64,000 bases of DNA from Candidatus Roizmanbacteria bacterium (GCA_024654535.1 JANLHL010000007.1:2395-66394), one strand, 5' to 3'. Positions 94 to 64,000 are shown, numbered from the stretch's first letter. The notes: generated by a model not told the origin, from the sequence alone. A program made the numbers and translations.

Positions 94-160
94 ATTCTAC
101 AATCGTTATTACGATTGTAGATTCCCTTGCATTTTTTTTACATGTCTTTACAATGTATGC

Positions 161-2131
161 ATGGATATTAAAAAGACCATAGAGCGAATAGAATCTGCAG
201 CACAACTTGCAATAGTTGCCCTTTTCCCACTTGTATTTTTCCCCATGTTTTCCGATGTTGTTGGGACAGCAAAGCTCTATTTTTTGGCAATAGCAACACT
301 CTTTTTAGTGGCACTCAAAGCAGTTAAAGTCGTCGTTACAAAACAGATTGAATGGAAAACGACCGGTTTCGAAACACCTCTCACATTGTTCGCTTTTGCC
401 TATGTACTATCAGCATTGGTAAGCGCCCCAAATAAAATTATGGCACTCACCGACCCGACACGTGGCGCACTTATGCCGGTACTCTTTGTAACACTCTACT
501 TTCTCTTACCGAAAAATAATAAAGCGGGCACGCTTATAGCAGCGTTTGTTTCACTCTTTGTGACAGCTCTTCTGACCGCACTGGTCTACTTTAAGGCATT
601 TTCATTTGTGCCAGATACGCTTGGATTTCTGAAGGTAAGTAGCTTTACTACAGTAGGAAACTATATATATCTCATTTTATTTGCCGCATTCTTGGGGGCA
701 GTTCTGCTACCTCACGTAACTGAAAGTGAAGAAATAAAAGACATGGCGACAGCTCATGGGGCTACTCAATTGAAGAAGGCTCGAAGTACAGCAGTAGATA
801 TGGTTTTCTTTGTCATAGCGCTTATTACTGCAATATTTAGCTCGTACGTACTGTTTAAAGACTTTAGCCCCCAATTTGTTTCATATGCTGCGACATGGCA
901 AACGTTCGTAGAGACCTTGAAAACACTTATGACTGGCCTTTTCGGTGTCGGTCCTGGAAATTATCTCACTATGTTTACTGTTGCGAAGCCCGCCTCGTAT
1001 AATGCGACGTCATTGTGGGCTCTCAATCCAGATCTTGGAGGAAGTGGACTCTTACACATAGCAACAGAAACAGGTATGCTTGGACTCTTAACGCTCGTCG
1101 CTATACTATTTATGTTTTTCAAAAGAACAAAAAAAACAGCTCTCTTTCCCGCATACATTGTACTTTTAGTATGGTTTGTGTTGGTACCATTAAGTCAAAT
1201 GACATGGTGGGCACTCTTTCTCTTTCTCATACTAACGACTACTTTTTCAAAGACACGTTCGTTTAATGCAGAGGAACTGCCAGTTATCTATATCGCACTC
1301 GCCGTTTTGGCTGCCGGCATAGTGGGTACAGGATCCTATTTCGGCTATCGCGGATATATGAGTCAATCTCTCTATTATCAGTCACTCGTAGCCTCACAAG
1401 CAAATCAAGCACAGCAACTTTATGATCTTCAGAACAGATCTATTATAGAGAACCCATATAATGAACAGACTCACTTGGCATTTTCTCAAACAAATTTGCT
1501 CTTAGCAAACAGCCTTTCTCAGAAAAAAGACCTAACCGACGCCGATAAACAAAATGTAAGCCAACTTATACAACAAGGTATTCAAGAGGCAAGAAACGTG
1601 GTTATTCTTAACCCACAACGAGCAGTATACTGGGCCAACTTGGGTGAAACATATAGAAGTGTACTGACAGTCGCCCAAGGAGCAGATGTTTGGGCAATTT
1701 CGAGTTATCAGAGAGCTATAGCCCTTGACCCACGCAATCCACAGTATTATTTTAGTCTTGGAAGCGTGTATTATGGACTTAAAAATTACGATGAAGCAAT
1801 ACGATTTTTCGGCAATGCAGTTTCATTGAAAACAGATATTCCTAACTACCAATACAACTTGGCGTGGGCTTACTATCAAAAACAAGACTACGTGCAAGCA
1901 GTCAACGCAATGCAAAGTACTCTACAACTAATCCCTGATAAGAAAAGCGCGGATTACAAAACAGCACAAAAAAACTTAGAAGAATTTCAAAAAATGGTAA
2001 AAGAAACTCAGCCTGCTCAAGATCAAACGGAACAAAATGCACAACCTGAGACATTATCACAACCATCCCCTATTCCAAGCATAACGCCTGAAATTTCACT
2101 AGCTCCCAATAACGCGCCCCCACAGCAATAA
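161..2131 (+). CDS. Polytopic membrane protein, O-antigen ligase (Wzy_C/WaaL-like) core with C-terminal TPR repeats
   Basis: From ORF 68-2131. The first 31 codons (TTG start) are translated intergenic repeat. The ATG at 161 lies 6 nt after TACAAT (149-154). About 10 hydrophobic helices. Loop GSGLLHIATETGMLGLL resembles the H..E.G..G loop of O-antigen ligases. The C-terminal ~200 aa are TPR-like (WANLGETY, YYFSLGSVYY, YNLAWAYYQKQDY). Confidence 0.6.
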   Translation: MDIKKTIERIESAAQLAIVALFPLVFFPMFSDVVGTAKLYFLAIATLFLVALKAVKVVVTKQIEWKTTGFETPLTLFAFAYVLSALVSAPNKIMALTDPTRGALMPVLFVTLYFLLPKNNKAGTLIAAFVSLFVTALLTALVYFKAFSFVPDTLGFLKVSSFTTVGNYIYLILFAAFLGAVLLPHVTESEEIKDMATAHGATQLKKARSTAVDMVFFVIALITAIFSSYVLFKDFSPQFVSYAATWQTFVETLKTLMTGLFGVGPGNYLTMFTVAKPASYNATSLWALNPDLGGSGLLHIATETGMLGLLTLVAILFMFFKRTKKTALFPAYIVLLVWFVLVPLSQMTWWALFLFLILTTTFSKTRSFNAEELPVIYIALAVLAAGIVGTGSYFGYRGYMSQSLYYQSLVASQANQAQQLYDLQNRSIIENPYNEQTHLAFSQTNLLLANSLSQKKDLTDADKQNVSQLIQQGIQEARNVVILNPQRAVYWANLGETYRSVLTVAQGADVWAISSYQRAIALDPRNPQYYFSLGSVYYGLKNYDEAIRFFGNAVSLKTDIPNYQYNLAWAYYQKQDYVQAVNAMQSTLQLIPDKKSADYKTAQKNLEEFQKMVKETQPAQDQTEQNAQPETLSQPSPIPSITPEISLAPNNAPPQQ

Positions 2132-2133
2132 CG

Positions 2134-2159
2134 CTTTATTTAGTCAAAACTAAATAAAG
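2134..2159 (+). terminator. Perfect 10-bp hairpin after gene 161-2131
   Basis: CTTTATTTAG-TCAAAA-CTAAATAAAG starts 3 nt after the stop and abuts the repeat box at 2160. Confidence 0.5.
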
Positions 2160-2302
2160 AATATCCAAGTTCAAATATCCAATATCAAAATATTGTCAAA
2201 TGACAAAGTTCAAATGTCCAATTTCGACATTTGTCATTTGGATTTGGATATTCTTTGGATATTTGAACTTGGGTATTGGGTATTGGGTATTGGATATTGA
2301 GG
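2160..2302. repeat. Composite intergenic repeat, full quasi-palindromic copy
   Basis: Left arm AATATCCAAGTTCAAATATCCAA...CAAATGACAAAGTTCAAATGTCCAA. Right arm GACATTTGTCATTTGGATTTGGATATTCTTTGGATATTTGAACTTGGGTATTGG. The arms share exact 18-nt and 11-nt complementary blocks. Confidence 0.9.
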
Positions 2303-2321
2303 ATTTGTTATAATGAACCCT

Positions 2322-3413
2322 ATGTTTAAAACGGCTTCTACGTGGCAAGAGATAAAAGATTTTTATGTATTTCTCAAGACTTATCTCCAAACGAAAGCAG
2401 TAGCACTCGGTAGAGGCTTTGAACAATTCAAAAACATACTCGTACTTCTCCTAATGACGAAACGAGGTAAATACCAACACTCGTTCCTTCATGCGTCATT
2501 TTTACTTCTTATAGTAAGTATCTGGATTGCTGGGCCAATTATTACAGAAAATAATCCACTCATCGGAAAAAATGCACTCGAAGGACCTGCTCAAAATCGC
2601 TCAATAGCTTCAATATATACCTATGCATCATCAAGCAACCTCACAACAACGCATATTTCTCAAAAACCTCGAGATATAGTAGAAGCCTACAAGGTAAAGA
2701 GTGGTGATACACTTGCAGAAATCGCGAAATCCTTTGGTTTGGAAGTTGATACTATAAAGTGGGCAAATGATTTGACGACTGACACAATTACTCCTGGTGA
2801 TACACTGAAAATCCCGCCAGTCAACGGAATAGTATACAAGGTGAAGAGCGGAGACACGATCTACTCTATCGCAGAAAAGTTCAATACAAATGCGCAAAAG
2901 ATAGTAAACTTCCCGTTCAACGAGTTTGCAGATATTGATACATTTGCTATTACCACCGGGCAGACGCTCATTGTCCCCGATGGCGTACCTCCAAGCGAGG
3001 CGCCGAGGAGACCTGCACAATTCGCGCCGCAGTTTGCAGCCGGACAGGCAGGTTCGGGTAACTTTATCTGGCCAACGTCAGGAGTCATAACGCAATACTA
3101 TGTGTGGTATCATCAAGCCCTCGATATAGCTAATCCTTCTTCTCCCTCTGTTATTGCCGCAGATACTGGCACGGTTAGCTACGCAGGGTGTATCAATTGG
3201 GGATACGGATGTCATATTATCATAGACCATGCAAATGGATATCAAACACTCTATGGACATTTATCTCGCATAGATGTTAGCACCGGTCAGGGAGTAGCAA
3301 AATCTCAACAAATAGGTTTTATGGGGTCAACTGGTCTCTCAACAGGGACACATCTTCATTTCGAAATAAGAAGTGGAGGACAACTGCTCAATCCGCTCGA
3401 TTTCTTGCAATAA
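2322..3413 (+). CDS. LysM-LysM-M23 peptidoglycan endopeptidase, membrane anchored
   Basis: Two LysM repeats (YKVKSGDTLAEIAKSFG, YKVKSGDTIYSIAEKFN). M23 motifs are HQALDIA and GSTGLSTGTHLHFEIR. N-terminal TM helix. The ATG at 2322 is 7 nt after TGtTATAAT (2306-2314); the ATG at 2313 overlaps the -10 box. Confidence 0.85.
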   Translation: MFKTASTWQEIKDFYVFLKTYLQTKAVALGRGFEQFKNILVLLLMTKRGKYQHSFLHASFLLLIVSIWIAGPIITENNPLIGKNALEGPAQNRSIASIYTYASSSNLTTTHISQKPRDIVEAYKVKSGDTLAEIAKSFGLEVDTIKWANDLTTDTITPGDTLKIPPVNGIVYKVKSGDTIYSIAEKFNTNAQKIVNFPFNEFADIDTFAITTGQTLIVPDGVPPSEAPRRPAQFAPQFAAGQAGSGNFIWPTSGVITQYYVWYHQALDIANPSSPSVIAADTGTVSYAGCINWGYGCHIIIDHANGYQTLYGHLSRIDVSTGQGVAKSQQIGFMGSTGLSTGTHLHFEIRSGGQLLNPLDFLQ

Positions 3414-4812: not shown

Positions 4813-5853
4813 TTAAAAAATTTCGTTAAGGTATCGCTCAATCTCAAGTTCGGCCGCTACACCCATGCCAACGGCAGTTGCAGCTTGACGATACGTATGA
4901 TCAACACAGTCTCCTGCTGCAAATACACCAGTAAGGCATGTCGCTGATGCATACTCAAAATTGAAATTCAGATCGGTTGAAGAACCATTGCCCTTCGATG
5001 ATCTTGCATAACGTAAAGCTTCTTGTGAACTCGTTACTATGTACCCTTTTTTGTCGAGTACTACGGCTGAATCTCGTAAAAAATCTGTTGCTGGCTTATG
5101 TCCAATGGCAACAAAAATGCCATCAAGTTTCAATACTTCTCTTTTAGGGCTAACGCTATCCACCGACTGCAATCGAATACCTTCAACTTTTTCATCCCCA
5201 ATAACTTCTGATACGGTAGTATTCCAAATCACTTCAATCTTTTCATGTTTCAAGACACGATCTGCCATTATTTTCGATGCACGAAAAGCACTTCGTCTAT
5301 GAATGACGTAAACTTTTTTTGCAAATGTGGTCAAGGTAAGTGCTTCTTCCATGGCGCTATCTCCTCCACCTATCACTGCGACAGTCTTATCTCTGAAAAA
5401 AAATCCATCGCAGGTTGCACACGCACTAACACCTCGTCCACGTAGGCGTTGTTCTGAATCTAATCCCATCCAAATGGCGTCTGCCCCAGTTGCTAAGAGC
5501 ACACTATGCGCTTGAAAGGTTTGTTTGTCAGTCTTTATTCTATAGGTTCTAGGTGTCTTATTCGTCTTATTTTCAGCAGGCTCTATACCGATCACATTTT
5601 CCTGGATGAATTTCGTATCAAAGCGCTTTGCCTGCTCTCTAAATTGAGCAATGAGTTCTGGCCCTTGGATTCCCTTTGCAAAACCGGGATAGTTTTCAAC
5701 TTCAGTCGTAAGCATGAGCTGTCCTCCCGATGGCACCCCCTCTATAACGAGTGGGTCAAGCCCTGCTCGTCCTGCATAAATTGCTGCAGCCAAACCGGCA
5801 GGACCACCTCCAACGATGATAATGTTTTGAATTGTCGATTGATGTTTTTCCAT
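4813..5853 (-). CDS. trxB: Thioredoxin-disulfide reductase
   Basis: FAD motif VGGGPAGLAAA, redox-active CATCDG, NADPH motif GGGDSAMEEA. Start MEKHQ is preferred because GGGAGG lies 10 nt upstream, inside the end of the preceding gene. Confidence 0.9.
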   Translation of the reverse strand: MEKHQSTIQNIIIVGGGPAGLAAAIYAGRAGLDPLVIEGVPSGGQLMLTTEVENYPGFAKGIQGPELIAQFREQAKRFDTKFIQENVIGIEPAENKTNKTPRTYRIKTDKQTFQAHSVLLATGADAIWMGLDSEQRLRGRGVSACATCDGFFFRDKTVAVIGGGDSAMEEALTLTTFAKKVYVIHRRSAFRASKIMADRVLKHEKIEVIWNTTVSEVIGDEKVEGIRLQSVDSVSPKREVLKLDGIFVAIGHKPATDFLRDSAVVLDKKGYIVTSSQEALRYARSSKGNGSSTDLNFNFEYASATCLTGVFAAGDCVDHTYRQAATAVGMGVAAELEIERYLNEIF

Positions 5854-5857
5854 ACTA

Positions 5858-6124
5858 TTACATCCTCCCAACTTCTTTTAATACTGTCTCCAATATTTTC
5901 TTATGTTCAGGAGCTACTGAGCAGAGTTCACTACGAGCAATTTCAATACCCACGTTCTGCACAGCAGCTTTTATGGCGTTAATCTGGAGTAAAATATCCT
6001 TACAGTTCCTTTTCTGTTCAAGCATGTTATTGATGCCTTTCAATTGACCAATAATACGATTAATACGCTTTGCGAGAATAGTTTGTTTTTGTATACCCAT
6101 ACCCCCCAATGGTATACCACGCAT
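5858..6124 (-). CDS. CsoR/RcnR/FrmR-family (DUF156) metal- or redox-sensing transcriptional repressor
   Basis: 88 aa, all-helical. RINRIIGQLKGI..M.....C.DILLQI.A....L matches the family signature, including the conserved Cys. Lies 4 nt upstream of trxB. Confidence 0.7.
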   Translation of the reverse strand: MRGIPLGGMGIQKQTILAKRINRIIGQLKGINNMLEQKRNCKDILLQINAIKAAVQNVGIEIARSELCSVAPEHKKILETVLKEVGRM

Positions 6125-8010: not shown

Positions 8011-8031
8011 TTCCTGCTATATACTTCCCCT

Positions 8032-8607
8032 ATGGCATTTGCACGATTATTAAGAAAAGGAGCTGTTAAAAAAGAGACAGAGAAACAGCAAGATAAATTT
8101 GTACTTATTTTAGATAATGTCTACGATACATTTAATGTTGGTGGTATGTACCGTATTGCCGACGCATCTGGGATACAAAAAATATATCACTGCGGTGATA
8201 CGCCGATACCTATTGAAAACGAAGTAGTGAATAACAAAATAGCACGTGCTTCAGTCGGCTTATACCAATATATAGCCTGGGAACACCACGATAAGACAGA
8301 ACAACTAGTAGATACCCTTAAACAACACGGTTATACAATAATTGCTCTTGAACAAGACACACGGTCAATACCGTTTGATCAATGTAGTGTAATCAATACT
8401 CCAATTGCGCTTATTGCTGGAAATGAAACATTTGGAGTAGATAAACAAGTAATAGACAAAGCTGATGTTGTGCTAGAGCTACCTATGTTTGGGATCAATA
8501 AATCGGTGAATGTTGTAGTCGCAACGGGGATAGTTGCCTACCATTTAAGAACACAGCTTCAGAAAAGTGAAAAGTGTAAAACGCAAAGTTACCGTTTAAA
8601 GACTTGA
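8032..8607 (+). CDS. SpoU/TrmH-family RNA 2'-O-methyltransferase
   Basis: Motifs IALIAGNETFGV and LELPMFGINKSVNVVVATGIVAY (SPOUT knot). The ATG at 8032 is 6 nt after TATACT (8020-8025). The upstream part of ORF 7960-8607 is translated repeat (DIGYW). Confidence 0.8.
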   Translation: MAFARLLRKGAVKKETEKQQDKFVLILDNVYDTFNVGGMYRIADASGIQKIYHCGDTPIPIENEVVNNKIARASVGLYQYIAWEHHDKTEQLVDTLKQHGYTIIALEQDTRSIPFDQCSVINTPIALIAGNETFGVDKQVIDKADVVLELPMFGINKSVNVVVATGIVAYHLRTQLQKSEKCKTQSYRLKT

Positions 8608-13391: not shown

Positions 13392-13400
13392 TGCTATAAT
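13392..13400 (+). promoter_or_regulatory. Extended -10 promoter TGcTATAAT for tRNA-Ala
   Basis: TGcTATAAT ends 14 nt before the tRNA 5' end. Confidence 0.55.
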
Positions 13401-13414
13401 GTAAAAAATAGAGA

Positions 13415-13491
13415 GGGCCCTTAGCTCAGTTGGCTAGAGCGTCCCGATGGCATCGGGAAGGTCAGGGGTTCAAGTCCCCTAGGGTCCACCA
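13415..13491 (+). tRNA. tRNA-Ala (anticodon GGC), CCA encoded
   Basis: Manual cloverleaf: acceptor GGGCCCT/AGGGTCC with G3:U70, D arm GCTC-AGTTGGCTA-GAGC, anticodon stem TCCCG/CGGGA with loop ATGGCAT, T arm AGGGG-TTCAAGT-CCCCT, 3' ACCA. Confidence 0.95.
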
Positions 13492-13632: not shown

Positions 13633-15351
13633 CTACATTCTTTCCAGCGTTTCTATACCTAACACATACAATCCATTTTTCAAGACCTGTGCTGTTGCTT
13701 CGGTAATATCCAAACGCATTTTGCTCCCACGGATAGGACAGACGTTGTAAAATGTATTGAAAAGTTGAGCACAATCATTCAGATACGTTGCGATAAAGTG
13801 CGGTGAATATTCGCGTGCAGAACGAGCAACAACATCTGGAAATTTCATAAGCTGGCGTACCAAGGCAGTTTCTTGTGTATTGAATGTCTGCGACAGATTC
13901 TCTTCTATTTTAACTTTTTCATTTTTAATTTTAAACTTTTTTAGTACGCTCTTTGCTCTCGCATACGTATACTGTACATATGGACCAGAATCACCACTAA
14001 AAGATAGGCTTTCATCTAAATCAAACGCAAGGTATTTAAAAGGGCTCATTTTTAAGTATGAATACTTTACCGCTCCTATTGCAATAGTATCTATATCTTT
14101 TTCTGTTAAAGACATTTTATTTTCACCAACAATTGTCCTTATTTTTTCATGAGCCTCATTGAGTATCGATTCCGCAGTGATAACTTTACCGGTACGAGAC
14201 GACATTTTCCCCTTTTTCAGCCCCACAAACTCATAGGCATTGTGATATTGTTTTCCTTTAAAAAGAGCGCTGTCTAAAAGCTCCTCAACTTTGAATGTCA
14301 CTGCAAAAAAACTTACCTGTTCCACAGCAACATTATGTATACACCTATCTAAATGACCAAAATCTGAAAATTCCATTTGTGCGAGGCCCAACTCTTTCCC
14401 TTCGTAGGTCAGAAAACCTTGGCTGTTGAGAAATACTCGCGTATCAAGCCCGTAGGGAGTGCCATCAAAAATGACTGCTCCTTTACTCTTTGTAAGAATA
14501 CCCTTCTTTATTGCCTCTTCGACTGTTTTATATGCTTTCTCAATTGTTTCGCTCTCCATATATTCACGATCAAAGTGCGTACCAAGCCGTTTATATATCT
14601 CATGAAATTTTTCCAGACTCCAACGGACTCCTGTTTGCCATATGTTCAATACCACTTTGTCTGACTTATTATAAATTGCCCCGTTCACTGCCTGAATTTC
14701 TTGTTTTATATTCTCGTCTTTCTCAAAGGCAGTCGCGCCTTCGGCATACGATTTCCCTAAAAATGCAACCCTTTCATCAATTGATTTCTTTTCTAGATTC
14801 TCAACTATTAATTCTGAATTCTTAATCGTATTTTGGATCGCCCATACTGTTTTTGCCACATGCATACCCACATCGCCTTGATAATTGGTACGAATAACGT
14901 GAGCACCAGCCTTTTCAAATAGTCGTGTGAGCGATTCGCCAATACAAAAATTGCGCAAATGCCCAATATGCATCACTTTAAATGGATTGGGATGGCCGTA
15001 TTCAACCATAATACGCTTATCTTTATAGTGTGCATTTGTTCCATAACTATCCTTCTCCGTTGCAATTCGCTTTAATTCACGTCCGTATACATCGGTAACA
15101 AAATAAAAATTTATGTATCCAGGGTTGACAACTTCAATACGATCAATATCCTTATGAGACAATTTTAAAAGTTTATCGCGTAGATCATTCGCAACTTCCA
15201 GAGGAGATTTTTTATACGCTTTTGCCAATTGTAGTGCAATGTTGCTCGAAAAATCTCCATATTCAAAACGTATCGGGTACATTACCTGAATTTTTTCGTG
15301 ATATTCTTTATCAATTACCTGTTTCAATAGTTGGGTGAGTAATGATTCCAT
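13633..15351 (-). CDS. argS: Arginine--tRNA ligase
   Basis: Class I HIGH motif (HIGHLRN), KMSSRTG in place of KMSKS, DALR-type anticodon-binding C-terminus. TGaTATACT (15359-15364) lies 7 nt upstream of the ATG. Confidence 0.95.
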   Translation of the reverse strand: MESLLTQLLKQVIDKEYHEKIQVMYPIRFEYGDFSSNIALQLAKAYKKSPLEVANDLRDKLLKLSHKDIDRIEVVNPGYINFYFVTDVYGRELKRIATEKDSYGTNAHYKDKRIMVEYGHPNPFKVMHIGHLRNFCIGESLTRLFEKAGAHVIRTNYQGDVGMHVAKTVWAIQNTIKNSELIVENLEKKSIDERVAFLGKSYAEGATAFEKDENIKQEIQAVNGAIYNKSDKVVLNIWQTGVRWSLEKFHEIYKRLGTHFDREYMESETIEKAYKTVEEAIKKGILTKSKGAVIFDGTPYGLDTRVFLNSQGFLTYEGKELGLAQMEFSDFGHLDRCIHNVAVEQVSFFAVTFKVEELLDSALFKGKQYHNAYEFVGLKKGKMSSRTGKVITAESILNEAHEKIRTIVGENKMSLTEKDIDTIAIGAVKYSYLKMSPFKYLAFDLDESLSFSGDSGPYVQYTYARAKSVLKKFKIKNEKVKIEENLSQTFNTQETALVRQLMKFPDVVARSAREYSPHFIATYLNDCAQLFNTFYNVCPIRGSKMRLDITEATAQVLKNGLYVLGIETLERM

Positions 15352-15373
15352 ACACTCAAGTATATCAAAAGGA

Positions 15374-15751: not shown

Positions 15752-16568
15752 TCGTTGGTGATAACTGCATAGTAACTATAGGCTTCTGTGTATTCAACTT
15801 GCTTTTCAAAGCATCCCTTACTTGTTTTGCCTCCTTAACAGCCAAGCGCAACTGCGCATATCCCTGTTTCAATTGGTCTTGCGACTGTGCTCTATACCCT
15901 TCTCCTATAATTTCTTCATTCACTTGCAAAAGCGTTGCTTTTGCTTCGTCATAATAATTTTGTGCAGATGCAATATATTCCTTTAAGGTAGCAGTATCGG
16001 CATTTTTCTGAGACAAAAGACCTTCGTATGTCTGTAATCGATTAAGAATCGATGAAAACTGTTGAAACCGTAAAGCCTCTGTATACAACAATCCCATTGA
16101 GCGGTAAGATTGCCAATTCTGCACCATAGTTTTTACCATTGGCTTAAGTGTGTCTTCGGTATCAACTCCTGTAAGAGCATTTTTCTGCGTATCAACCCAT
16201 GCTTGGCGCGCGGTAATACGGGCAGTTAACCACGTTCGTATGTCGCCATCAAGTTTCACATTATCCGTTATTTTTGTTTGAAATTTTGTCAAGAAAGTTG
16301 AAAGCGAATCTAACTTTTTGAGTGTATTTTGTTTTCTTACTTCTACAGTATCAGACGATTGCGTTTGAGCGCCATCAATAGCAGAAGAAGTTGCAGGTTT
16401 TTCATTACTTAAACGTGGATCAAATTTATTGAATCTTCCAGGAATCTGGGTGGGTTTTGTATCGGAATTCCCCATCCTATCTGCTTGTGCAGATTGTGCA
16501 TACACACCGGCTCCCGCAACGACGAAAAAACTAAGTAAAAAAACAAGTATGATCGACTTTTTGCGCAT
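15741..16568 (-). CDS. Hypothetical secreted helical protein
   Basis: Signal peptide MRKKSIILVFLLSFFVVAGAGVYAQS. The ATG at 16568 is 6 nt after CATACT (16575-16580). Lies immediately downstream of the coupling-protein-like ATPase. Confidence 0.55.
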   Translation of the reverse strand: MRKKSIILVFLLSFFVVAGAGVYAQSAQADRMGNSDTKPTQIPGRFNKFDPRLSNEKPATSSAIDGAQTQSSDTVEVRKQNTLKKLDSLSTFLTKFQTKITDNVKLDGDIRTWLTARITARQAWVDTQKNALTGVDTEDTLKPMVKTMVQNWQSYRSMGLLYTEALRFQQFSSILNRLQTYEGLLSQKNADTATLKEYIASAQNYYDEAKATLLQVNEEIIGEGYRAQSQDQLKQGYAQLRLAVKEAKQVRDALKSKLNTQKPIVTMQLSPTNEQ

Positions 16569-16613
16569 ACACACAGTATGGGGAAAAAGAGAGAAAAAGT
16601 CAAAGGGGAAATA

Positions 16614-18839: not shown

Positions 18840-18933
18840 ACGATTATTATACAGGAATAAAAAAGTGTAGAGAACCTACACATAAAATTCGGGCTTGTAA
18901 ATCGAGTTCAAGCGGTGTACACTTGCCGCAAAT

Positions 18934-20241: not shown

Positions 20242-20466
20242 TTACTTCACATCTCTCAAAAGCTCAGCTACAGAAATATCTAGCTTGTTCGCTATTTTTG
20301 CTAAGAGTCGCAACGATGGGTTAGCACCGGCCGACTCTATACGGCTAATGTATGTTCTATCTACGTGAGCAATAAAAGCAAGCTCTTCTTGCGATATTCC
20401 CTTTTGTTTGCGTAACACGCTTATACGCTTACCGACTATGTTATTTACCATAATAGTAAAAATCAT
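20242..20466 (-). CDS. XRE-family helix-turn-helix transcriptional regulator
   Basis: HTH_3 signature LRKQKGISQEELAFIAHVDRTYISRIESAGANPSLRLLAKIANKL. The ATG at 20466 is 5 nt after TGaTATACT (20472-20480). The longer ORF starts at a TTG. Confidence 0.85.
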   Translation of the reverse strand: MIFTIMVNNIVGKRISVLRKQKGISQEELAFIAHVDRTYISRIESAGANPSLRLLAKIANKLDISVAELLRDVK

Positions 20467-46485: not shown

Positions 46486-47149
46486 AATAGATTTGACTTA
46501 TTATAATTGGGCAAAAATCATCAGGTAATTTATTTACTGGAGCTGTATGTAAGACATTCAACAGATTTTTGGTATTGCCAGAGAGACAGTTAAGATATTT
46601 ACTTTGTTGAAACTTTTTTTTTGCGAGAGCAATCAACGCTGGAGTATAACTCCGAACTACAACCACAACTTCTTTCTTCTCTTTTAACAGTGTTTCTGCA
46701 TCAATAGGAGTATATAATCCACCGGTCCAAGTTTCTCTGTGTTCAAAAAAACTATTACCTTTGATTTTGGTAATGGCGACATTTTTGTCAGATAGTTGAT
46801 TAAACAAGTAAGTAAAATTGGCGCTTTTCGTCTCACCAGATTCATTTTTTAACAACAAAATAAATCTTGCATCATTCCTTGTACGTATTGTTTTTTGAAC
46901 TCTTCCAACTATCTTATATACTGATTTACCTGTGTCAACTTCAACAATTCCACAGTCAATAGATTTATTAGCTTCATTTTTAAATAGGTCACATTTTATT
47001 ATTTGATTTTTACTGTTAAAGAATAAAAAAATGGACAAGCCTATTAAGAAGATTGATGCAATAGTTATTAGTATGATAGGGCTTTTCACATTAGTTTTAA
47101 GAAAATACTGCACAAATTCTCTATATATAAATAGACAATACACCGTCAC
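46475..47149 (-). CDS. Hypothetical membrane-anchored protein
   Basis: 224 aa with TM helix IILITIASIFLIGLSIFLFF. GTG start 8 nt after TGaTATACT. Overlaps the downstream giant gene by 11 nt. Confidence 0.45.
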   Translation of the reverse strand: MTVYCLFIYREFVQYFLKTNVKSPIILITIASIFLIGLSIFLFFNSKNQIIKCDLFKNEANKSIDCGIVEVDTGKSVYKIVGRVQKTIRTRNDARFILLLKNESGETKSANFTYLFNQLSDKNVAITKIKGNSFFEHRETWTGGLYTPIDAETLLKEKKEVVVVVRSYTPALIALAKKKFQQSKYLNCLSGNTKNLLNVLHTAPVNKLPDDFCPIIISQIYYVE

Positions 47150-47289
47150 ACTATTTCAGTATATCAAGAAATCAATAATCAAATATGAAATTAAAAAAAA
47201 TGAAAATTAGTCTTTTATATTTTTATACCAGTCCAAACTCACAATAGCTACAATTATTTCCACTGAAAAGATATTAGAATCAGATAGTA

Positions 47290-49675: not shown

Positions 49676-50578
49676 CTATGCACCCTGTCGTTTTACTTTC
49701 TCCTCGTCGTAGCGTAAGAAAGGCTTATAATACGCTATATTTCCTGCAATATTTCTCATAAGCGTTTCAAATAGAATACCTCCTGGAATTATAGCTGTTG
49801 TTCCTGATGCGAATAGTTGTCCTTTTGTATGTGCGCCAAGTTCTTGATTTGAAAGCATACTCTCACGAAATAGTTGGGCCATATATTGTGGATTCCTTCT
49901 ACTTAAAATGTCGACTCCATCATTCATAATTCTCATGCCAACCTTAGATACTGCATATATAATTGGCACTAAAATAGTGCGCACATCAGCAGTCAGAGAA
50001 TCACTGTGTGCAATAAGCTCTGGCAGCAATGAAAACAATAGCAACGGACCGCCTTCTTCTATAATTCTTGCTACATTTCTTACATTCAGAAAGTCTCGCA
50101 TGGGTGGAAACCCTTCATTCTGTCCCCAACCATATTTACTCATTGTGTGCGCAAAAGTAATATCACCTAAGCCATGTCGTATACATCGCTCCAACGCACC
50201 GGCGACAGCTACTCTTGATACTTTTTCACCAGGACGAGTTTTCGCCGATACAGCTTTCCATAATTGAGATGGGTCAATTGTAAGTGCATATGCACCGGTG
50301 AACGAGTGGTCCAAATTGTATTCTTGATAAGGACTTGGGAGCGAAGTAATTGTATAGACATCGCTCGGCTGAGGAGATTTCCCAAAAGAATACTTCACGG
50401 GTGGAGTGCCATATATCGTACACAACGCATCATGTTGTGCCATGCTCACCTCAAAGTCGCTCCAGTAACCAAAATCCTCAAAATTCCAAACAGCAAACCG
50501 ACTATCAGGTTTGTTTGTTATAGGAACCCATGTTGCCCTTTTATTTGTTTCTGGTGAACTTCCATCTTCTGCTGACAT
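49676..50578 (-). CDS. Hypothetical protein
   Basis: 300-aa ORF. The ATG is 7 nt after TATACT (50586-50591). No recognisable motif. Confidence 0.45.
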   Translation of the reverse strand: MSAEDGSSPETNKRATWVPITNKPDSRFAVWNFEDFGYWSDFEVSMAQHDALCTIYGTPPVKYSFGKSPQPSDVYTITSLPSPYQEYNLDHSFTGAYALTIDPSQLWKAVSAKTRPGEKVSRVAVAGALERCIRHGLGDITFAHTMSKYGWGQNEGFPPMRDFLNVRNVARIIEEGGPLLLFSLLPELIAHSDSLTADVRTILVPIIYAVSKVGMRIMNDGVDILSRRNPQYMAQLFRESMLSNQELGAHTKGQLFASGTTAIIPGGILFETLMRNIAGNIAYYKPFLRYDEEKVKRQGA

Positions 50579-50754
50579 GGCTTATAGTATATAACACCTG
50601 TCAATTTATTTATTAAATCAACTACGAAATACACTTCCTTAGAAAACTTTCTATTATTTATTTGTGCTCTATCGGACTTCCTGTATCGTTTTATCGACTA
50701 TAATCCGTGGCTTATTTTATTAAGGTTCCGTACCTTTAAGGGAGGATAGGTTGT

Positions 50755-51852
50755 TTAGGCTTCGAGGAATTCGCGATAGTTGCGGTCGGTGACGAGAAAT
50801 TGGGTACCATCGTGATTCAGTATCTTCCATGCACATTTGCGCACCATGCCTTGGATACGGCGGTTGAGTGTACGAATACCCGGATCAAACCCGAGCGGTC
50901 GTATGATGAGTGGCCATACATTGTCCTCTATCCGGAGGGTATTCGTATCGAGCGCAACCTCTTTTATGGCGCGTGGTAATAAATACTCTTTTGCAATATA
51001 GAGCTTTTCTTCATCAGAGTAGCTGGGCATTTGTATAATTTCCATACGATCAAGCACCGCTGTCGCTATCTTATTTGTATTATTCGCCGTCGCTACAAAA
51101 ATCGCATCGGATATATCAAAGGGGTAATCTATATAATGATCAACGAATGCTTTGTTCTGTTCTGGGTCTAACAATTCTACTAATACACCCATTATTTCAT
51201 TGCGTTTTTCGTCGGATACACGATCAAGTTCATCAAGTAAAATGATCGGATTTCTAACCCCGACTCTTCGTAAACTTCTCATGACAATACCCGGTTCTGC
51301 CTCAGTATGGGTGCGTGAAAGCCCACGGAGGTCGAGCCCAGATGACAGCCCACCGAATGGTATTCGTACAAGTTTCCTGTTCAATGCTTCTGCCATAGAA
51401 ACAGCCATCGTAGTCTTACCAGTTCCGACAAGACCAACGAAACAAAGTATGGGTGCATGGAATTTGACTGTTGCAGCAGTCTGTTTGATGTTTTCTATTG
51501 GAGAGAACTCACCTTCGGAAATATTGTTTAAGGCTTTGTGACGCTGTAAGATTATAACAGACATGTACTCTAAAATGCGCTTTTTTATATTGTCCAAACC
51601 GTAGTGATTCTTATCAAAAATAGAACGCGCACGAGAGATCTCTAGCGTATCAATACTCTCAGAATTCCATGGCAACGATAACACCCACGTAACATATCGT
51701 TCGATTTGATCAAACACAATGAATGAAGATCCACCTCCTGCTTTCATAACAAATTCGAGCCTATCTAATTGATCGGTCAGCTTTACCGTCAGATCTTCGG
51801 GTAGCTTGGCATTGAATACTTTATCTTTGAGTTGTGAAACTTGAAACTGCAT
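50755..51852 (-). CDS. Lon-like AAA+ ATPase module without the LON N-domain or protease domain
   Basis: Collinear with the Lon region from ...WLLSLPW... (here WVLSLPWN) through HYGL..IKKRILEY, Walker A GLVGTGKTT, Walker B ILLDELDRV and LLDPEQN.AF.DHY to LDRMEIIQMPSY..EEKL.IAK.YLLP. The ORF ends where the protease domain would begin. Confidence 0.75.
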   Translation of the reverse strand: MQFQVSQLKDKVFNAKLPEDLTVKLTDQLDRLEFVMKAGGGSSFIVFDQIERYVTWVLSLPWNSESIDTLEISRARSIFDKNHYGLDNIKKRILEYMSVIILQRHKALNNISEGEFSPIENIKQTAATVKFHAPILCFVGLVGTGKTTMAVSMAEALNRKLVRIPFGGLSSGLDLRGLSRTHTEAEPGIVMRSLRRVGVRNPIILLDELDRVSDEKRNEIMGVLVELLDPEQNKAFVDHYIDYPFDISDAIFVATANNTNKIATAVLDRMEIIQMPSYSDEEKLYIAKEYLLPRAIKEVALDTNTLRIEDNVWPLIIRPLGFDPGIRTLNRRIQGMVRKCAWKILNHDGTQFLVTDRNYREFLEA

Positions 51853-51866
51853 ATTTTCAGTATATC

Positions 51867-53546
51867 TTATTTATACCTTTTTTTAAGGTATTCCATATGG
51901 CGTGAACGGGCACGTTCGAACTTCTCAAAATCCAAGCTAAACTCTACAAGCATGCGAGCTGCATATTGTGCACCAAGGTAGTGAGGCATAAGCACATAAG
52001 TAGCGCCTTCTTCGTACAGCGCAATCGCCTCATCAATGCGCTGTGACAACACAATAATAATTGCTTTTTTATTGTTCATGCGTGTATGGCGAACGAGGAG
52101 CGTATTTGCTTCAATATCTGCAATAGTAGATACCACCAAATTCATGTTCGCAAGCCCCAACTCTTCTAAAAATTCAACATCTTGTGCATCTCCATACTTA
52201 TACAAGATACCCTCTCCTTCGAGGCGTCGTATAGACTCTGGATTGAAATCTATGACAAGAAAGCGTTTGCCCAATTTTTTAAATGAATTCACAAAATCCT
52301 CGCCTACCCGATCGTATCCAAATAAGAGCGTGTCATGGGTGGCAGTATAGTTCTTGCTTGATTTATGTGTTTTTCTAATCTCAAGACGAGCAAGAAGTGG
52401 AGAAAAAAATCGGTAGATGTCATTGCCATACAGTATGAAATAAGTCGAAACGGGGATAGTAATAAGCCCGACGAGCGTCACTAGTGATACAACATCGCTT
52501 GTGATAAAACCAGACGTATAGGCAATAGACATGAATATGAGCGAAAATTCACTAATCTGTGCCAAACTTATTCCTGTGAGAAAATTTACTCTTCGGTTGT
52601 AGCCCAACAGATTCATTGAATAAAAGACGATAAATGGATTCCCAATGAGCACAAAGAGCGATAGAACGATAGCTGGTACGAGCTGTTGACCAAGCATGGG
52701 TAACTGTATATGCGAACCGAGGAGTATAAAAAAGAGCACAACAAAAAAATCACGAAGTGGTTTAAGACGAGAACTGATTTCATATGCATAAGGCGTAATA
52801 GAAAGAGTCACTCCTGCAACGAGTGCACCGATTTCTAAAGAAAAACCTATGATTTGAAAAAGGGCTGCAAGACCAACTCCCCAGGCAATGGAAAATAGAA
52901 ACAGGAATTCCTGTGAATAAGCCAAAAAACTGGCGATTTTACTTAAGACAAACTGAGAAAAAATATACAATGCTGCAACGAGAAGTATTCCTTTCATGAG
53001 TACGAACAAGACGGTGAAGATTACCTGTTGATCGCCGGCATTGCCAAGTGCTGGCAGCACAACCATAAGTATGGTGGCAACGATGTCTTGCAGCAACAAT
53101 ATACCAATGGTGACCTTCCCATAAAACTTATCCAGGTCCCCCTTATCGGCAAGATATTTCAATACAACGATAGTGCTTGAAAACGTGAGCGCAATTGCAA
53201 TAAATGCTGCTGTCGTAAAACCAAAACCCAAAAGACGTACAACAACCAAACCGACAATAAAGGTAACAACCACCTGAGCAAGACCTGCAAAGAGGGAAAC
53301 CTTGCCAACTTCTTTAATAACTTTGGGACTTAAATGCAAACCAACTATAAAGAGAAGCACCGTAACGCCAAACTGAGAAAATACTTCTATTGTTTGCGTT
53401 GAATGAAGTAAATTGAGCGCGTAGGGGCCAACGATAAGACCGGTCAGAATATGGCCAACGATAAGTGGCTGTTTTAAAAGCCGCATAACCGCCGCTATAG
53501 CAACCGCTAAAAATAATATAGCGCCAATCTCAGAAAAAACAGTCAT
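51867..53546 (-). CDS. CPA2-family cation:proton antiporter with C-terminal RCK/TrkA-N domain
   Basis: About 12 TM helices of the Na_H_Exchanger type, then a Rossmann-like LLFGYDRVGEDF domain. The ATG is 6 nt after TACAAT (53553-53558). Confidence 0.85.
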   Translation of the reverse strand: MTVFSEIGAILFLAVAIAAVMRLLKQPLIVGHILTGLIVGPYALNLLHSTQTIEVFSQFGVTVLLFIVGLHLSPKVIKEVGKVSLFAGLAQVVVTFIVGLVVVRLLGFGFTTAAFIAIALTFSSTIVVLKYLADKGDLDKFYGKVTIGILLLQDIVATILMVVLPALGNAGDQQVIFTVLFVLMKGILLVAALYIFSQFVLSKIASFLAYSQEFLFLFSIAWGVGLAALFQIIGFSLEIGALVAGVTLSITPYAYEISSRLKPLRDFFVVLFFILLGSHIQLPMLGQQLVPAIVLSLFVLIGNPFIVFYSMNLLGYNRRVNFLTGISLAQISEFSLIFMSIAYTSGFITSDVVSLVTLVGLITIPVSTYFILYGNDIYRFFSPLLARLEIRKTHKSSKNYTATHDTLLFGYDRVGEDFVNSFKKLGKRFLVIDFNPESIRRLEGEGILYKYGDAQDVEFLEELGLANMNLVVSTIADIEANTLLVRHTRMNNKKAIIIVLSQRIDEAIALYEEGATYVLMPHYLGAQYAARMLVEFSLDFEKFERARSRHMEYLKKRYK

Positions 53547-53662
53547 GAAATCATTGTATAGAGATATGCGAAAATATCCAACCTACTTGTCTATCTGCGC
53601 AGGCAAGCAAATGGCAAAGTTCAAATGTCAAAAAATATGTCGTTAGAATGACGGATAACTCA

Positions 53663-56502: not shown

Positions 56503-56546
56503 AGCATTAGAACGCTCCCTATTGACACAGTGCTATAATAGCTACT

Positions 56547-56966
56547 ATGCAAAGACCAGATTTCCGCGAGTTAGTAACCCATCCTCGTATGTTATTAGCC
56601 CTTATGATTCTCTCTATAAGTATAGCTGGGTGCGCATATAAAGAACCTATACATGATTGCGGTGGATACTACAATATAGATTGGAGCGAGCAATTGCATT
56701 TGAGAGAAAGTGAAGATATTCTAAGGATTGAGCGTATTGGTGAATTATCGATTCATAATGATCAACTGAGGTTAGTCGTAAGTAAAGATGCACAAGAACC
56801 GAAATTAGCTTCATCTGCAACTCCTGATGCTTTAGCCATCTTAACACATAACGGTGAATACACATTCACTCTAGGTACTACCGACCAAGAAACCGGCCTC
56901 ACGAACGTTGACTATACAGGGCATTGCTATACGTTCACTCCTCAGGGTCAAAGAATGAGCGACTAA
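56547..56966 (+). CDS. Small lipoprotein of unknown function
   Basis: Lipobox LSISIAGC. The ATG is 7 nt after TGcTATAAT (56531-56539). Confidence 0.55.
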   Translation: MQRPDFRELVTHPRMLLALMILSISIAGCAYKEPIHDCGGYYNIDWSEQLHLRESEDILRIERIGELSIHNDQLRLVVSKDAQEPKLASSATPDALAILTHNGEYTFTLGTTDQETGLTNVDYTGHCYTFTPQGQRMSD

Positions 56967-59358: not shown

Positions 59359-59378
59359 TCTTTTGCTATTATTATTCC

Positions 59379-60275
59379 ATGCAACAGCATCCGATTCCGC
59401 GGCAAATTACGACATTTGAATTTAAACTTATTGGCCAACTGACAATACGTCAGGCCATATACCTTGCTATTGGAACAGCGCTCGGTGTGTCCTTTTTTTT
59501 TCTTGTCCCCTCTGTGTTGTATATTAACGTGTTTATTGCAGCACTGCCACTTTTGATTGGCGTTGGATTTGCATTCGTACCAGTGAATGAGCGACCGATG
59601 GAGATTTGGGTTTCAAACCTCGTAAAAAGACTCACGAGTCCGACACAATACTATTTCCATAAAAAAAATAAACCACCGCAAATATTGCTCGGAGTCCGTT
59701 TACCACCAAAAGAGGTACTCGTTGAGTATCTTCGCGCAAAACAACAGTTATCTGCATATGAAGAAAATAGATCGAGAAAAAAAGATATACCGCTTGGCCT
59801 CGAAGATACCACCGAAGACAAGCTTTCTTCCATTCATAAAGCCCTGCAGGGGTCAGATATACAAAAACCACCCACGGAAATACTACAATCGACAAAGACA
59901 ACTCCAGCAGTCCGTCGTGGAGATTCGCAGCTGAGTAGCGCTTTCACGCAGACAGATGCCTTTCATGCCTCAGTTCGGCCAGGGACTCTTGCGTTTACTC
60001 CACTTCGCGTGAAACCTTTGACCATGTCTATACATGGTACGGTACAAAACGAAAACAATATTCCTATCCCACACGTCGTGGTCTACATAAAGAAAGATGG
60101 ACACACTGTACGAATAATGAAAACAAATGAACAGGGTTACTTTGAAAATGCAATTCCATTACCAAAGGATGACTATGTATTGGAAGCAGACGACCCACAT
60201 AAAAAGTACTCCTTTGCTAGAATGACTATAGACCCAAATAGGCCAGTGATACAAATGATGGGAGAAAGGAACTAA
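59379..60275 (+). CDS. PrgI-family (VirB3-like) membrane protein with C-terminal carboxypeptidase-regulatory-like beta domain
   Basis: N-terminus IPRQITTFEFKLIGQLTIRQAIYLAIG followed by two TM helices and PVNERPMEIW is the PrgI-type pattern. The C-terminal IHGTVQNENNIPIPHVVVYIKKDGHTVRIMKTNEQGYF is CarboxypepD_reg-like. The ATG is 6 nt after TGcTATTAT (59364-59372). Confidence 0.6.
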   Translation: MQQHPIPRQITTFEFKLIGQLTIRQAIYLAIGTALGVSFFFLVPSVLYINVFIAALPLLIGVGFAFVPVNERPMEIWVSNLVKRLTSPTQYYFHKKNKPPQILLGVRLPPKEVLVEYLRAKQQLSAYEENRSRKKDIPLGLEDTTEDKLSSIHKALQGSDIQKPPTEILQSTKTTPAVRRGDSQLSSAFTQTDAFHASVRPGTLAFTPLRVKPLTMSIHGTVQNENNIPIPHVVVYIKKDGHTVRIMKTNEQGYFENAIPLPKDDYVLEADDPHKKYSFARMTIDPNRPVIQMMGERN

Positions 60276-62868: not shown

Positions 62869-62902
62869 CCATATATTTTTTAGTATTCTAAAAAATATAT
62901 GG
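62869..62902 (+). terminator. Perfect 15-bp hairpin after the VirB4-like gene
   Basis: CCATATATTTTTTAG-TATT-CTAAAAAATATATGG starts 1 nt after the stop. It is followed directly by the repeat box AATATCCAAGTTCAAATATCCAA rather than a U-tract. Confidence 0.5.
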
Positions 62903-62950
62903 AATATCCAAGTTCAAATATCCAAAGAATGTCAAAGTTCAAATGACAAA
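62901..62950. repeat. Composite intergenic repeat, left arm only
   Basis: GGAATATCCAAGTTCAAATATCCAAAGAATGTCAAAGTTCAAATGACAA. Confidence 0.85.
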
Positions 62951-63094
62951 AAAGGAAAAGATAAGCACGATGCTACGTTATTAGAAGATCTTTACATCTT
63001 GATTTGTAACTTTTTCTATTCACTAGCACTATAGAATAGTGCACATTTTTTTAGAATTGGTCGTTGTAATAACCTGCTCAACCCCGGGGGTTGA

Positions 63095-63502
63095 TTAGAG
63101 CATGTCAGCAATTTCGCAGAGCGACGGCATTGCGTCAAGTCGTTTAATTTCCTCAACCGTACACCAGCGATACTCTGAAGCCTCTTCGTTTAATACGATG
63201 CTTGACTCTGGGTTTGCCAACTCGCACACATAGGACAATAGAATCCCCTGCCACCATCCGTAGTGAATAACCGAGAGCGGTGGTAAAAAACGAGTTGTCC
63301 TAACAACGACACCAATCTCTTCTTTGAGTTCACGTATGACGGTTTGTTCTGGAGATTCGCCAAATTCAAGGCCACCACCGGGAAATTGCCACTTATCGTG
63401 AAAACCCACGTCTTCACTATCTCGCTGTACCCGTTTTGTGAGTAAATAACGATTCCCTTTTTGGACTATACCGATCGCAACAACCTGTGTACGATTTTTC
63501 AT
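63095..63502 (-). CDS. Nudix hydrolase (MutT-like)
   Basis: Nudix box GGGLEFGESPEQTVIRELKEEIGV. Confidence 0.85.
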   Translation of the reverse strand: MKNRTQVVAIGIVQKGNRYLLTKRVQRDSEDVGFHDKWQFPGGGLEFGESPEQTVIRELKEEIGVVVRTTRFLPPLSVIHYGWWQGILLSYVCELANPESSIVLNEEASEYRWCTVEEIKRLDAMPSLCEIADML

Positions 63503-63576
63503 ATCAGAAGTATACCACTCCCTCTACTATATTTATAAATTTTCACTTTTAATTTTAAACTAGATATAATGGGGCT

Positions 63577-64000
63577 ATGGGCGAGAAACATGAGTACAAA
63601 AAATTCCCGCATATTTACCGCACTATTACCGCGCACCTTAAAAAATATGCGCGACCGTTGGCACCTCTTTTCATCGCGTTGGGAATAATAATGATAGGTA
63701 TGGCAAATATAGCAGCCTACGGACGCCTTCCGAATTTAGCAAAAACAGCACTAGCAAATCCACTAGACACAACCACACTGAAAACAATTGCGACAAACAT
63801 ACATGAAGAATCGGCACGACAAACACTGAGCGCCTATGTGCTCGAACACGGGAACGAACAGATAGTAACTGATGCATTTGTTCAACAACAGGCGCGTACA
63901 AAAAAACTCGTTGAAATTAACCTACTCATACGTCAATATCCAAAATATCCCGATGCCTATGCGTATAAGGCTCTTTTGTTAACTGACCAAGGGCAGTGTG
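63577..64000 (+). CDS. Partial CDS (3' end outside window): membrane-anchored protein, possibly TPR-containing
   Basis: Not in the ORF track because it has no stop in the window. I translated 141 codons by hand without a stop (MGEKHEYKKFPHIY...). TM helix LAPLFIALGIIMIGMANIAA. The ATG is 6 nt after TATAAT (63565-63570). Confidence 0.5.
   Translation, partial: MGEKHEYKKFPHIYRTITAHLKKYARPLAPLFIALGIIMIGMANIAAYGRLPNLAKTALANPLDTTTLKTIATNIHEESARQTLSAYVLEHGNEQIVTDAFVQQQARTKKLVEINLLIRQYPKYPDAYAYKALLLTDQGQC

Follow-up and report, generated by a model that had tools for sequence, protein, structure and literature searches.

Promoter boxes at a fixed distance from start codons suggest widespread leaderless transcription in a 64-kb segment of a Candidatus Roizmanbacteria genome

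The window analyzed here, by which we mean the whole stretch of 64,000 nucleotides (JANLHL010000007.1:2395-66394), comes from a metagenome-assembled genome of Candidatus Roizmanbacteria (GCA_024654535.1), an uncultured, tiny-celled member of the Microgenomates in the candidate phyla radiation (CPR, Patescibacteria), the proteins of which are deposited at NCBI as NUV65_00xxx and MCR43289xx. The contig is 140,315 bp long. Exact look-ups for contigs encoding the GroEL protein (57107-58762), the proteins at the two ends of the window (161-2131 and 63095-63502) and the protein P0121 gave no hits. The window has a GC content of 41% and contains approximately 46 genes, of which about 8 are located inside operons and about 38 are the first genes of transcription units. 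The gene content is typical of the CPR, with type IV secretion-like ATPases, large surface proteins, GroES/EL, Rho and ArgRS, along with many proteins that have no match in Pfam; a Pfam scan of ten uncharacterized proteins yielded a single match, to UbiA (34606). No rRNA genes were found in the 64-kb window or in any of the relative loci with which it was compared. Most of the first genes share one feature, a hexamer resembling the -10 promoter box that ends 5-8 nt upstream of the start codon. The 25 solid cases are given below with coordinates, strand, the hexamer (preceded by TGn where the extended form is indicated), the length of the spacer to the start codon, and the start codon with its position.

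146..163, plus strand: TACAAT, 6 nt, ATG 161; TPR / O-antigen-ligase-like membrane protein; the NCBI protein MCR4328934.1 begins here
2306..2324, plus strand: TGtTATAAT, 7 nt, ATG 2322; LysM / M23 peptidase with a heptamer array directly upstream; same start at NCBI
8017..8034, plus strand: TATACT, 6 nt, ATG 8032; SpoU-type methyltransferase; same start at NCBI
15349..15367, minus strand: TGaTATACT, 7 nt, ATG 15351; argS, with its promoter located in the last codons of the upstream gene and the 22-nt gap behind them
16566..16606, minus strand: TTGACT, 17 nt, CATACT, 6 nt, ATG 16568; same start at NCBI
18837..18854, minus strand: TATAAT, 6 nt, ATG 18839; type IV secretion coupling-protein-like ATPase; read back and compared with relatives
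20464..20480, minus strand: TGaTATACT, 5 nt, ATG 20466; XRE-family helix-turn-helix regulator of 74 aa; read back and compared with relatives
20714..20733, plus strand: TATAAT, 8 nt, ATG 20731; membrane protein of 1325 aa
27451..29960, plus strand: TG[AG]TATACT, 5 nt, ATGs 27465, 28266, 29187 and 29958; four tandem paralogues; same starts at NCBI
32930..32948, minus strand: TGaTATACT, 7 nt, ATG 32932; TTGACA in the -35 zone; identical sequence in the relative L019
33127..33145, plus strand: TATAAT, 7 nt, ATG 33143; FAD-dependent oxidoreductase beginning with MKVAILGAGFAG
34591..34608, plus strand: TGtTATACT, 6 nt, ATG 34606; UbiA prenyltransferase
38488..38505, plus strand: TACAAT, 6 nt, ATG 38503
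41472..41489, minus strand: TATACT, 6 nt, ATG 41474; type IV secretion DNA-binding ATPase; same start at NCBI
47147..47166, minus strand: TGaTATACT, 8 nt, GTG 47149; the sole candidate start that is not an ATG
50576..50594, minus strand: TATACT, 7 nt, ATG 50578
51850..51867, minus strand: TATACT, 6 nt, ATG 51852; Lon-like AAA ATPase, with the stop codon of the upstream gene only 14 nt away
53544..53561, minus strand: TACAAT, 6 nt, ATG 53546; cation/proton antiporter
56531..56549, plus strand: TGcTATAAT, 7 nt, ATG 56547
59364..59381, plus strand: TGcTATTAT, 6 nt, ATG 59379; PrgI-family protein with the longest heptamer array (59245-59358) upstream; same start at NCBI
63500..63517, minus strand: TGgTATACT, 6 nt, ATG 63502; NUDIX-like
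63562..63579, plus strand: TATAAT, 6 nt, ATG 63577

All of the 22 start codons listed in the original prediction, which was made from the sequence of the window, were found upon read-back to be preceded by the hexamer named for them at the spacer of 5-8 nt given. The prediction spoke of at least 23 genes, of which its list contained only 22 positions. Three solid cases are new, namely 63502 (TGgTATACT, 6 nt), 32932 (TGaTATACT, 7 nt) and 47149 (TGaTATACT, 8 nt, GTG), all on the minus strand, as are two weak ones, the Rho gene at 7465 (TATTAT, 7 nt) and 25522 (TAAACT, 7 nt), also on the minus strand. The start codon is ATG in 24 of the 25 solid cases. In total, 25 solid and 2-3 weak leaderless-type cases were identified among the approximately 38 first genes, which corresponds to 66-74%. 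The hexamer at 16568 (CATACT) is weaker, yet it is accompanied by a conserved TTGACT 17 bp upstream, and the TATTAT at 59379 matches in two registers, with spacers of 3 and 6 nt. At 18934, 35592 and 49563, a good box is located 10-15 nt upstream of the start codon, which implies leaders of approximately 3-8 nt.

Measured over the 46 genes of the window, the distance between the -10 match and the start codon clusters at spacers of 5-8 nt, with a mode of 6-7 nt, as had been anticipated. A strict box, defined as TA[TC]A[AC]T, is followed by ATG at spacers of 5, 6, 7 and 8 nt on 7, 12, 10 and 5 occasions when both strands of the window are counted, as compared to approximately 3.7 box-ATG pairs expected per spacer in first-order Markov simulations, while the counts at spacers outside 5-8 nt were near the expectation. 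Because a circular choice of starts was to be avoided, candidate starts were selected without reference to the box, as in-frame ATGs located at most 180 nt from the upstream stop codon in 45 coding open reading frames (ORFs). The strict box was present at 5-8 nt before 21 of the 95 candidate ATGs (21 of the 45 genes) versus 13 of the 2163 remaining ATGs (Fisher p = 8e-22), and only 1 of the 362 internal in-frame ATGs was preceded by it. An independent -10 matrix built from E. coli frequencies was used to search the 45 nt upstream of each start for the best hexamer, which was located at a spacer of 5-8 nt in 26 of the 46 genes, as compared to 10.5% of the control ATGs. A hexamer scoring at least 5 bits was present at this distance in 24 of the 46 genes versus 1.9% of the control ATGs. 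The pattern is confirmed, and it is far beyond chance.

The alignment of 28 sites on the hexamer yields the consensus T-A-T-A-(C/A)-T, with TG overrepresented in the extended -10 position, together with a weak TTG at a distance of exactly 17 bp upstream. The boxes had been described as often of the extended TGn form, and this proved correct for 13 of the 25 solid boxes versus 8 of the 162 other strict hexamers (5%, p = 2e-8). Likewise, TTG is located 16-18 bp upstream of 9 of the 25 solid boxes as compared to 10 of the 162 other strict hexamers (6%, p = 1e-4). The signal in information content is limited to the -10 box, the TG and the weak TTG at -35, and no TATA box or BRE of the archaeal type (“group D”) was found approximately 26 nt upstream. 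Both of the tRNA genes are preceded by the same extended box.

13392..13415, plus strand: tRNA-Ala promoter TGcTATAAT; hexamer at 13395-13400, mature 5' end at 13415, 14 nt away
34540..34557, minus strand: tRNA-Leu promoter TGcTATACT; hexamer at 34554-34549, mature 5' end at 34539, 9 nt away

No good box is located 5-8 nt before several genes that are operon-internal or closely follow another gene (61066, groEL 58762, 15751, 6124, trxB 5853), and the situation in which the same motif precedes first and internal operon genes of leadered mRNAs (“group B”) was not found in the window. One gene goes against a strict confinement of the box to first genes, the operon-internal gdh (4789), which has a weak TAAATT at 7 nt.

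We also compared the window with loci from related genomes. The nearest species-level genome in GTDB (L001) is only 57-66% identical in protein sequence, whereas the closer relatives L007, L008, L009 and L019, recovered from metagenome and Logan contigs, show 80-84% nucleotide identity, and the contigs L014-L016 encode an AAA ATPase that is 85-93% identical in protein. Upstream of argS (15351), the TTGGTGAC-GAATAATCCTTTTGATATACTT block and the ATG are kept in the three lineages L007, L008 and L009, with a spacer (GAGTGT / ACTGGT / GGTTGT) of constant length in which 6 of 7 bases differ. At 16568, the relatives share TTGACT, CCCCATACT and the ATG, and their spacers of 17 nt and 6 nt differ in sequence but not in length. 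The succession of TATACT, 6 nt and ATG at 51852 is retained in L014, L015 and L016, with a variable spacer (GAAAAT / GTTCGT / GTTACT), and this is so although the gene upstream of the orthologue is sodA in L014 and L015 but the antiporter in the window. At 33143, L019 retains TATAAT, 7 nt and ATG with 5 of the 7 spacer bases changed. Taken together, the 6-7-nt spacers of argS, 16568, 51852 and 33143 have accumulated up to 5-6 substitutions and zero indels, with box and ATG invariant. Leaderless transcription predicts just such a spacer, constrained in length but not in sequence, with a conserved -10 box on one side and a conserved ATG on the other. The box of tRNA-Ala is conserved in L007 and L009, of which L009 has a 6-nt insertion between the box and the tRNA. 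The box behaves as a sigma-70 promoter and not as a ribosome-binding site, because TGn and TTG are enriched, tRNA genes are boxed, most internal genes are unboxed and the spacer is conserved in length only.

The layout was also observed elsewhere in the related loci. The SpoU orthologue of 8032 in L001 has the same N-terminus, MAFAR, and TACAAT, 6 nt and ATG, and a paralogue of the 27465-29958 genes in L019 has the same succession of box, spacer and ATG. In L022 (GCA_001789795.1), seven boxes resembling TGaTATAAT were identified at 6-7 nt before the ATG and two further boxes at 6 nt, along with one clear internal Shine-Dalgarno (SD) sequence; L020 (GCA_001788375.1) and L019 have a similar layout. 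When 92 externally called starts from five loci were pooled, the distribution peaked at a spacer of 6 nt (14 genes), with 27 genes at 5-8 nt. The more distant Microgenomates-type loci L001 and L017 contain a mixture of leaderless-type and strong SD starts, and no leaderless-type starts were recovered in an ORF-anchored analysis of the unrelated CPR loci L002, L004, L006 and L012. Plain counts of hexamer, spacer and ATG on single loci of 5-20 kb were too sparse and were replaced by the analyses anchored on ORFs and called genes.

The SD sequence is rare in the window. In the per-start table, which was used for the tally since a more liberal count at every candidate start proved rich in false positives and was set aside, SD cores at a plausible spacing were recovered at only three of the 46 starts: GGGAGG (5853), GGGAGA (42534) and GGGAGGTG (26638). 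These are the three that had been predicted. The accompanying claim that SD sequences are confined to operon-internal genes and the lipoprotein gene holds for these genes, but most of the operon-internal genes also lack an SD. Only 5853 and 42534 among the operon-internal starts have an SD-type site, and the other internal genes have no recognizable ribosome-binding site. The upstream regions of gdh, a CsoR-like gene, 15751, 46485, groES, groEL, 54844 and 61066 have no SD and are A/T-rich. The organism thus looks SD-poor in general, rather than using SD sequences inside operons; some Parcubacteria have been reported to have no anti-SD sequence (PMC9297842). Three sites serve as contrasts to the leaderless-type starts.

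5853..5872, minus strand: trxB, ATG 5853, with the SD GGGAGG 10 nt upstream; operon-internal
26638..26658, minus strand: lipoprotein gene, ATG 26638, with the SD GGGAGGTG 8 nt upstream; in a GC-richer segment
58762..59160, minus strand: groES (59091)-groEL (58762); TTGACA, 17 nt, TAAAAG, then a leader of approximately 45 nt; groEL is operon-internal

Both groES and groEL lack an SD as well as a -10 box at a spacer of 5-8 nt, and groES (59091) was rejected as a leaderless case on account of its leader of approximately 45 nt. Also rejected were 54785, where TATAAT is located 22 nt upstream of the NCBI start, and sodA (54241), 60419, 31617 and 13218, which have no convincing box at 5-8 nt. In the divergent pair 54785-54844, the in-frame ATG 54818 of the YtxH-like gene has TGaTATTTT at a 6-nt spacer, and both a leadered (54785) and a leaderless (54818) reading of this gene are possible.

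Annotation evidence is available for many of the start codons. The proteins deposited at NCBI begin at the predicted ATGs in all 12 cases tested (ten genes plus 33143 and 20466). For 33143, the NCBI protein of 443 aa is 100% identical and has the Rossmann motif MKVAILGAGFAG at its very N-terminus; the 33 repeat-encoded residues upstream are covered by none of the 120 homologues listed. Most of the homologues listed for 51852 are similar in length, with a query coverage of 98-100%. The XRE regulator at 20466 has 74 aa at NCBI, as compared to 82 or 92 aa in the annotation of relatives by other pipelines, which is an example of how such pipelines over-extend starts. The pattern had been expected to correct many ORF starts; the ATGs agree with NCBI in 12 of 12 cases, and the starts in question were already correct in GenBank. 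The protein that begins at 26638 has no exact match in the protein collection searched, from which it follows that the public annotation uses another start. Agreement with NCBI is supportive and not independent.

These observations are best explained by leaderless transcription of the 25 solid and 2-3 weak cases among the approximately 38 transcription units, a reading which is well supported in silico and which we judge to be probable. Most of the transcription units would have sigma-70-type promoters, many of them extended -10 promoters with the consensus TGnTATA(C/A)T, in which the hexamer ends 5-8 nt (mode 6-7 nt) before the start codon. The transcript would begin at the A of the ATG or within 1-2 nt of it, because the polymerase initiates approximately 7 bp past the -10 box and bacterial RNA polymerase prefers a purine as the start base. 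A distance of 7 bp from the -10 box to the transcription start site (TSS) is general across bacteria (PMC12641261). The resulting mRNA would have no 5' untranslated region and no SD, and translation would begin when the ribosome, with initiator tRNA, recognizes the 5'-terminal AUG, by analogy with characterized leaderless mRNAs. Motif, spacing, promoter character, conservation and start-codon positions are direct observations, from which we infer the TSSs and the mode of translation initiation.

Some points weigh against this explanation. The coincidence of TSS and ATG is deduced from the spacing alone, and spacers of 5 and 8 nt could place the TSS 1-2 nt off the A. The promoters of 51852, 15351, 16568 and 56547 are located inside or just after a co-directional upstream gene, with gaps of 14, 22, 45 and 44 nt, respectively, and read-through transcripts with internal ATGs probably coexist beside the leaderless ones, in a layout that amounts to nearly one promoter per gene. 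The tandem paralogues at 27465, 28266, 29187 and 29958 share the block GCGCCGCTGAATGGTATACT; they are not independent cases and represent one lineage of evidence. Finally, the start calls at NCBI are not fully independent, having been made by a gene finder whose model includes this same box at the start.

One alternative accepts the promoters as real but assumes that the leaders are mostly very short (1-8 nt), or that the leaderless form is a minor isoform beside read-through transcripts. The span of the spacers from 5 to 8 nt and the boxes 10-15 nt upstream of 18934, 35592 and 49563 are in line with short leaders, just as the four promoters that follow a co-directional gene at 14-45 nt, without any visible terminator, are in line with a minor isoform. 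On the other hand, the mode of 6-7 nt sets the preferred start on the purine of the ATG, and if the exact register were unimportant, it would be difficult to see why spacer length is maintained while the sequence drifts; moreover, leaders of up to 5 nt are normally counted, and translated, as leaderless. We consider this alternative improbable. A role of TATAAT / TATACT as a non-SD translation signal, that is, as an AT-rich binding site for the ribosome or S1 on leadered mRNAs (“group B”-like) with the TSS located further upstream, would suit an organism with only three SD cores at 46 starts and with the AT-rich upstream regions that are typical of SD-independent initiation. Such a signal does not account for the sigma-70 features of the motif (TGn, and TTG at 17 bp) or for its presence before both tRNA genes, which are untranslated, and it is missing from most of the operon-internal genes, where a ribosome-binding site is most needed. 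Group B genomes have the same motif at first and internal genes alike (PMC6028130), which is not so here, and we assign this alternative a slightly smaller probability than that of short leaders.

It could also be argued that the pattern is a product of chance in AT-rich intergenic DNA, together with a biased preference for whichever ATG is closest to a TATA-like hexamer. At a GC content of 41%, weak TAnnnT hexamers are frequent, and the marginal cases 7465, 25522 and 4789 could well be due to chance. For the solid cases, this reading is refuted by the tests presented above, namely the significance obtained with box-blind start candidates and the single boxed ATG among the 362 internal ones. 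In addition, the peak is limited to spacers of 5-8 nt, the starts are backed by deposited proteins and homologues, and the layout is conserved in relatives. As an explanation of the pattern as a whole, chance is barely credible.

Leaderless transcription as the default in this lineage is a broader proposition. Whether leaderless initiation is the default in Roizmanbacteria, and perhaps in the wider Microgenomates, at no less than two thirds of the transcription units (at least 2/3), is in our view evenly balanced. Under this proposition, nearly every gene would have its own extended -10 promoter, even when it is located 14-45 nt behind the previous gene, the SD would be nearly dispensable, and inverted heptamer arrays forming a long hairpin would occupy the intergenic space, with the -10 box and the ATG immediately behind them. 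The default may be linked to the reduced ribosomes of the CPR, and the heptamer hairpin might serve as a terminator or insulator as well as being a source of the -35-like TTG.

Arrays of the heptamer ATATTGG / TATTGGG were observed in many of the intergenic regions, at approximately 20 sites in the window (e.g., 2160-2311, 13186-13247, 26749-26867, 39058-39116, 41563-41653, 54262-54378, 59203-59358, 60282-60386). They commonly form inverted pairs, in which a CCAATAT array is followed by an ATTGG array. The segment 2140-2300 folds as one long hairpin with -56 kcal/mol (z = -8.4). The downstream arm of the hairpin reaches directly to the -10 box of the following gene, and its TTGG units provide a -35-like TTG. 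Six-frame translation of the arrays yields spurious “DIGYW” or “YPISN” peptides. Intergenic heptamer arrays likewise precede leaderless-type promoters in L001 (9900-10000, 16530-16575, 19290-19420) and L019 (1166-1290, 8082-8218). The unit is ATATTGG in L019, as in the window, and CAGACAT, CAGTTT[TA] or ACAACTT / ACGACTT at different loci in the more distant L001. In these relatives, the habit of forming arrays is conserved, but the sequence of the unit is not. A perfect (TTGGATA)x4.3 array at 42500-42529 is located within a minus-strand operon and antisense to it, where it encodes the N-terminus “MKISNIQYPISNS” of gene 41680-42534 as called; candidate readings are that the true start of this gene is located elsewhere or that the array is an antisense promoter. 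A Y1-transposase gene (PF01797, IS200 / RAYT type) is located directly downstream of the Lon-like AAA ATPase in three relatives (L014:1688-2386, L015:1487-2185, L017:11126-11782), and none was found at the corresponding site in the window. This transposase may bear on how the palindromic heptamer elements have spread.

A few other features of the window were recorded. Upstream of groES, at 59145-59179 on the minus strand, the inverted repeat TTAGCACTT-N17-AAGTGCTTA overlaps the TTGACA -35 element; it resembles the half-sites of CIRCE, the HrcA operator, with a spacer of 17 nt rather than 9 nt. The four tandem paralogues at 27465-30626 encode proteins of 222-279 aa with no Pfam match, are separated by 81-nt gaps and have near-identical promoter blocks, GCGCCGCTGAATGGTATACT; related copies are present in L019. 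The segment 25694-26812, with a GC content of 45% versus 41%, contains the lipoprotein-like gene (MRKILFFLSLLLAALFMAAC), whose SD is the strongest of the whole window, and may have been horizontally acquired. In L022 (13660-15030), a bAvd gene adjoins a reverse-transcriptase (RVT_1) gene, which is the signature of a diversity-generating retroelement and unrelated to the leaderless pattern.

If TSS mapping confirms the pattern, this CPR lineage would be among the most leaderless-rich bacteria, beside Deinococcus and the haloarchaea. The result would then bear on the question of whether leaderless initiation is ancestral or has been derived repeatedly, and on the way in which the CPR ribosome, pared down as it is, chooses start codons when SD pairing is little used. 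For annotation, gene callers that rely solely on the SD extend many ORFs into the heptamer repeats and thereby place spurious “DIGYW”-type N-termini in CPR databases. For genetics, the consensus TGnTATA[C/A]T, 6 nt, ATG provides a ready design for expression cassettes in CPR genetic systems.

In the literature searched, leaderless mRNAs were not found linked to the CPR, Patescibacteria, Saccharibacteria or Microgenomates. Elsewhere in bacteria, the literature recognizes leaderless transcription by a Pribnow box located 6-8 nt from the start codon, an architecture referred to as “group C” by GeneMarkS-2 (Lomsadze et al., 2018, PMC6028130); it is frequent in the Actinobacteria and Deinococcus-Thermus, where 25-50% of the operons are predicted to be leaderless (PMC6028130). 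The window resembles group C in that the -10 box is located at a fixed 5-8 nt before the first genes of operons, with other initiation types mixed in, and in that gene callers based on the longest ORF mis-set such starts. It differs in belonging to the CPR and in the share of units, approximately 66-74% as compared to the predicted 25-50% (PMC6028130). Also, genes that are not leaderless usually have an SD in group C, whereas most of them have none here.

In Deinococcus deserti (de Groot et al., 2014, as summarized in PMC6028130), 167 of the 262 TSS-mapped genes are leaderless. Leaderless-type starts are the majority in both cases and the -10 box is located directly upstream of the start codon. 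The two cases also differ: the D. deserti starts were established by differential RNA sequencing (dRNA-seq) and proteogenomics and ours by sequence and comparison only, and the genome of the window is low-GC and reduced, with promoters that are often of the extended -10 type and have a weak -35 element. Among the mycobacteria, the 2013 work of Cortes on M. tuberculosis and the 2015 work of Shell on M. smegmatis reportedly put the leaderless share at about a quarter to 40% of the genes or operons, with clear SD sequences in the rest. The mycobacterial arrangement is similar in that TANNNT precedes a 5'-terminal ATG or GTG by approximately 6-8 nt and translation is SD-independent; it differs in that those genomes are GC-rich, with leaderless genes in the minority and the rest with a clear SD. 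With the Bacteroidota and group B, the window shares the near-absence of the SD and the A/T-rich regions upstream of internal and leadered genes (groEL, gdh, 54844). Group B genomes place a single non-SD motif before every gene on leadered mRNAs, whereas the motif here is a promoter that is largely restricted to first genes and is also present at the tRNA genes. Leaderless transcription in this segment would represent a known mechanism in a new lineage, the CPR, at the high end of the known range.

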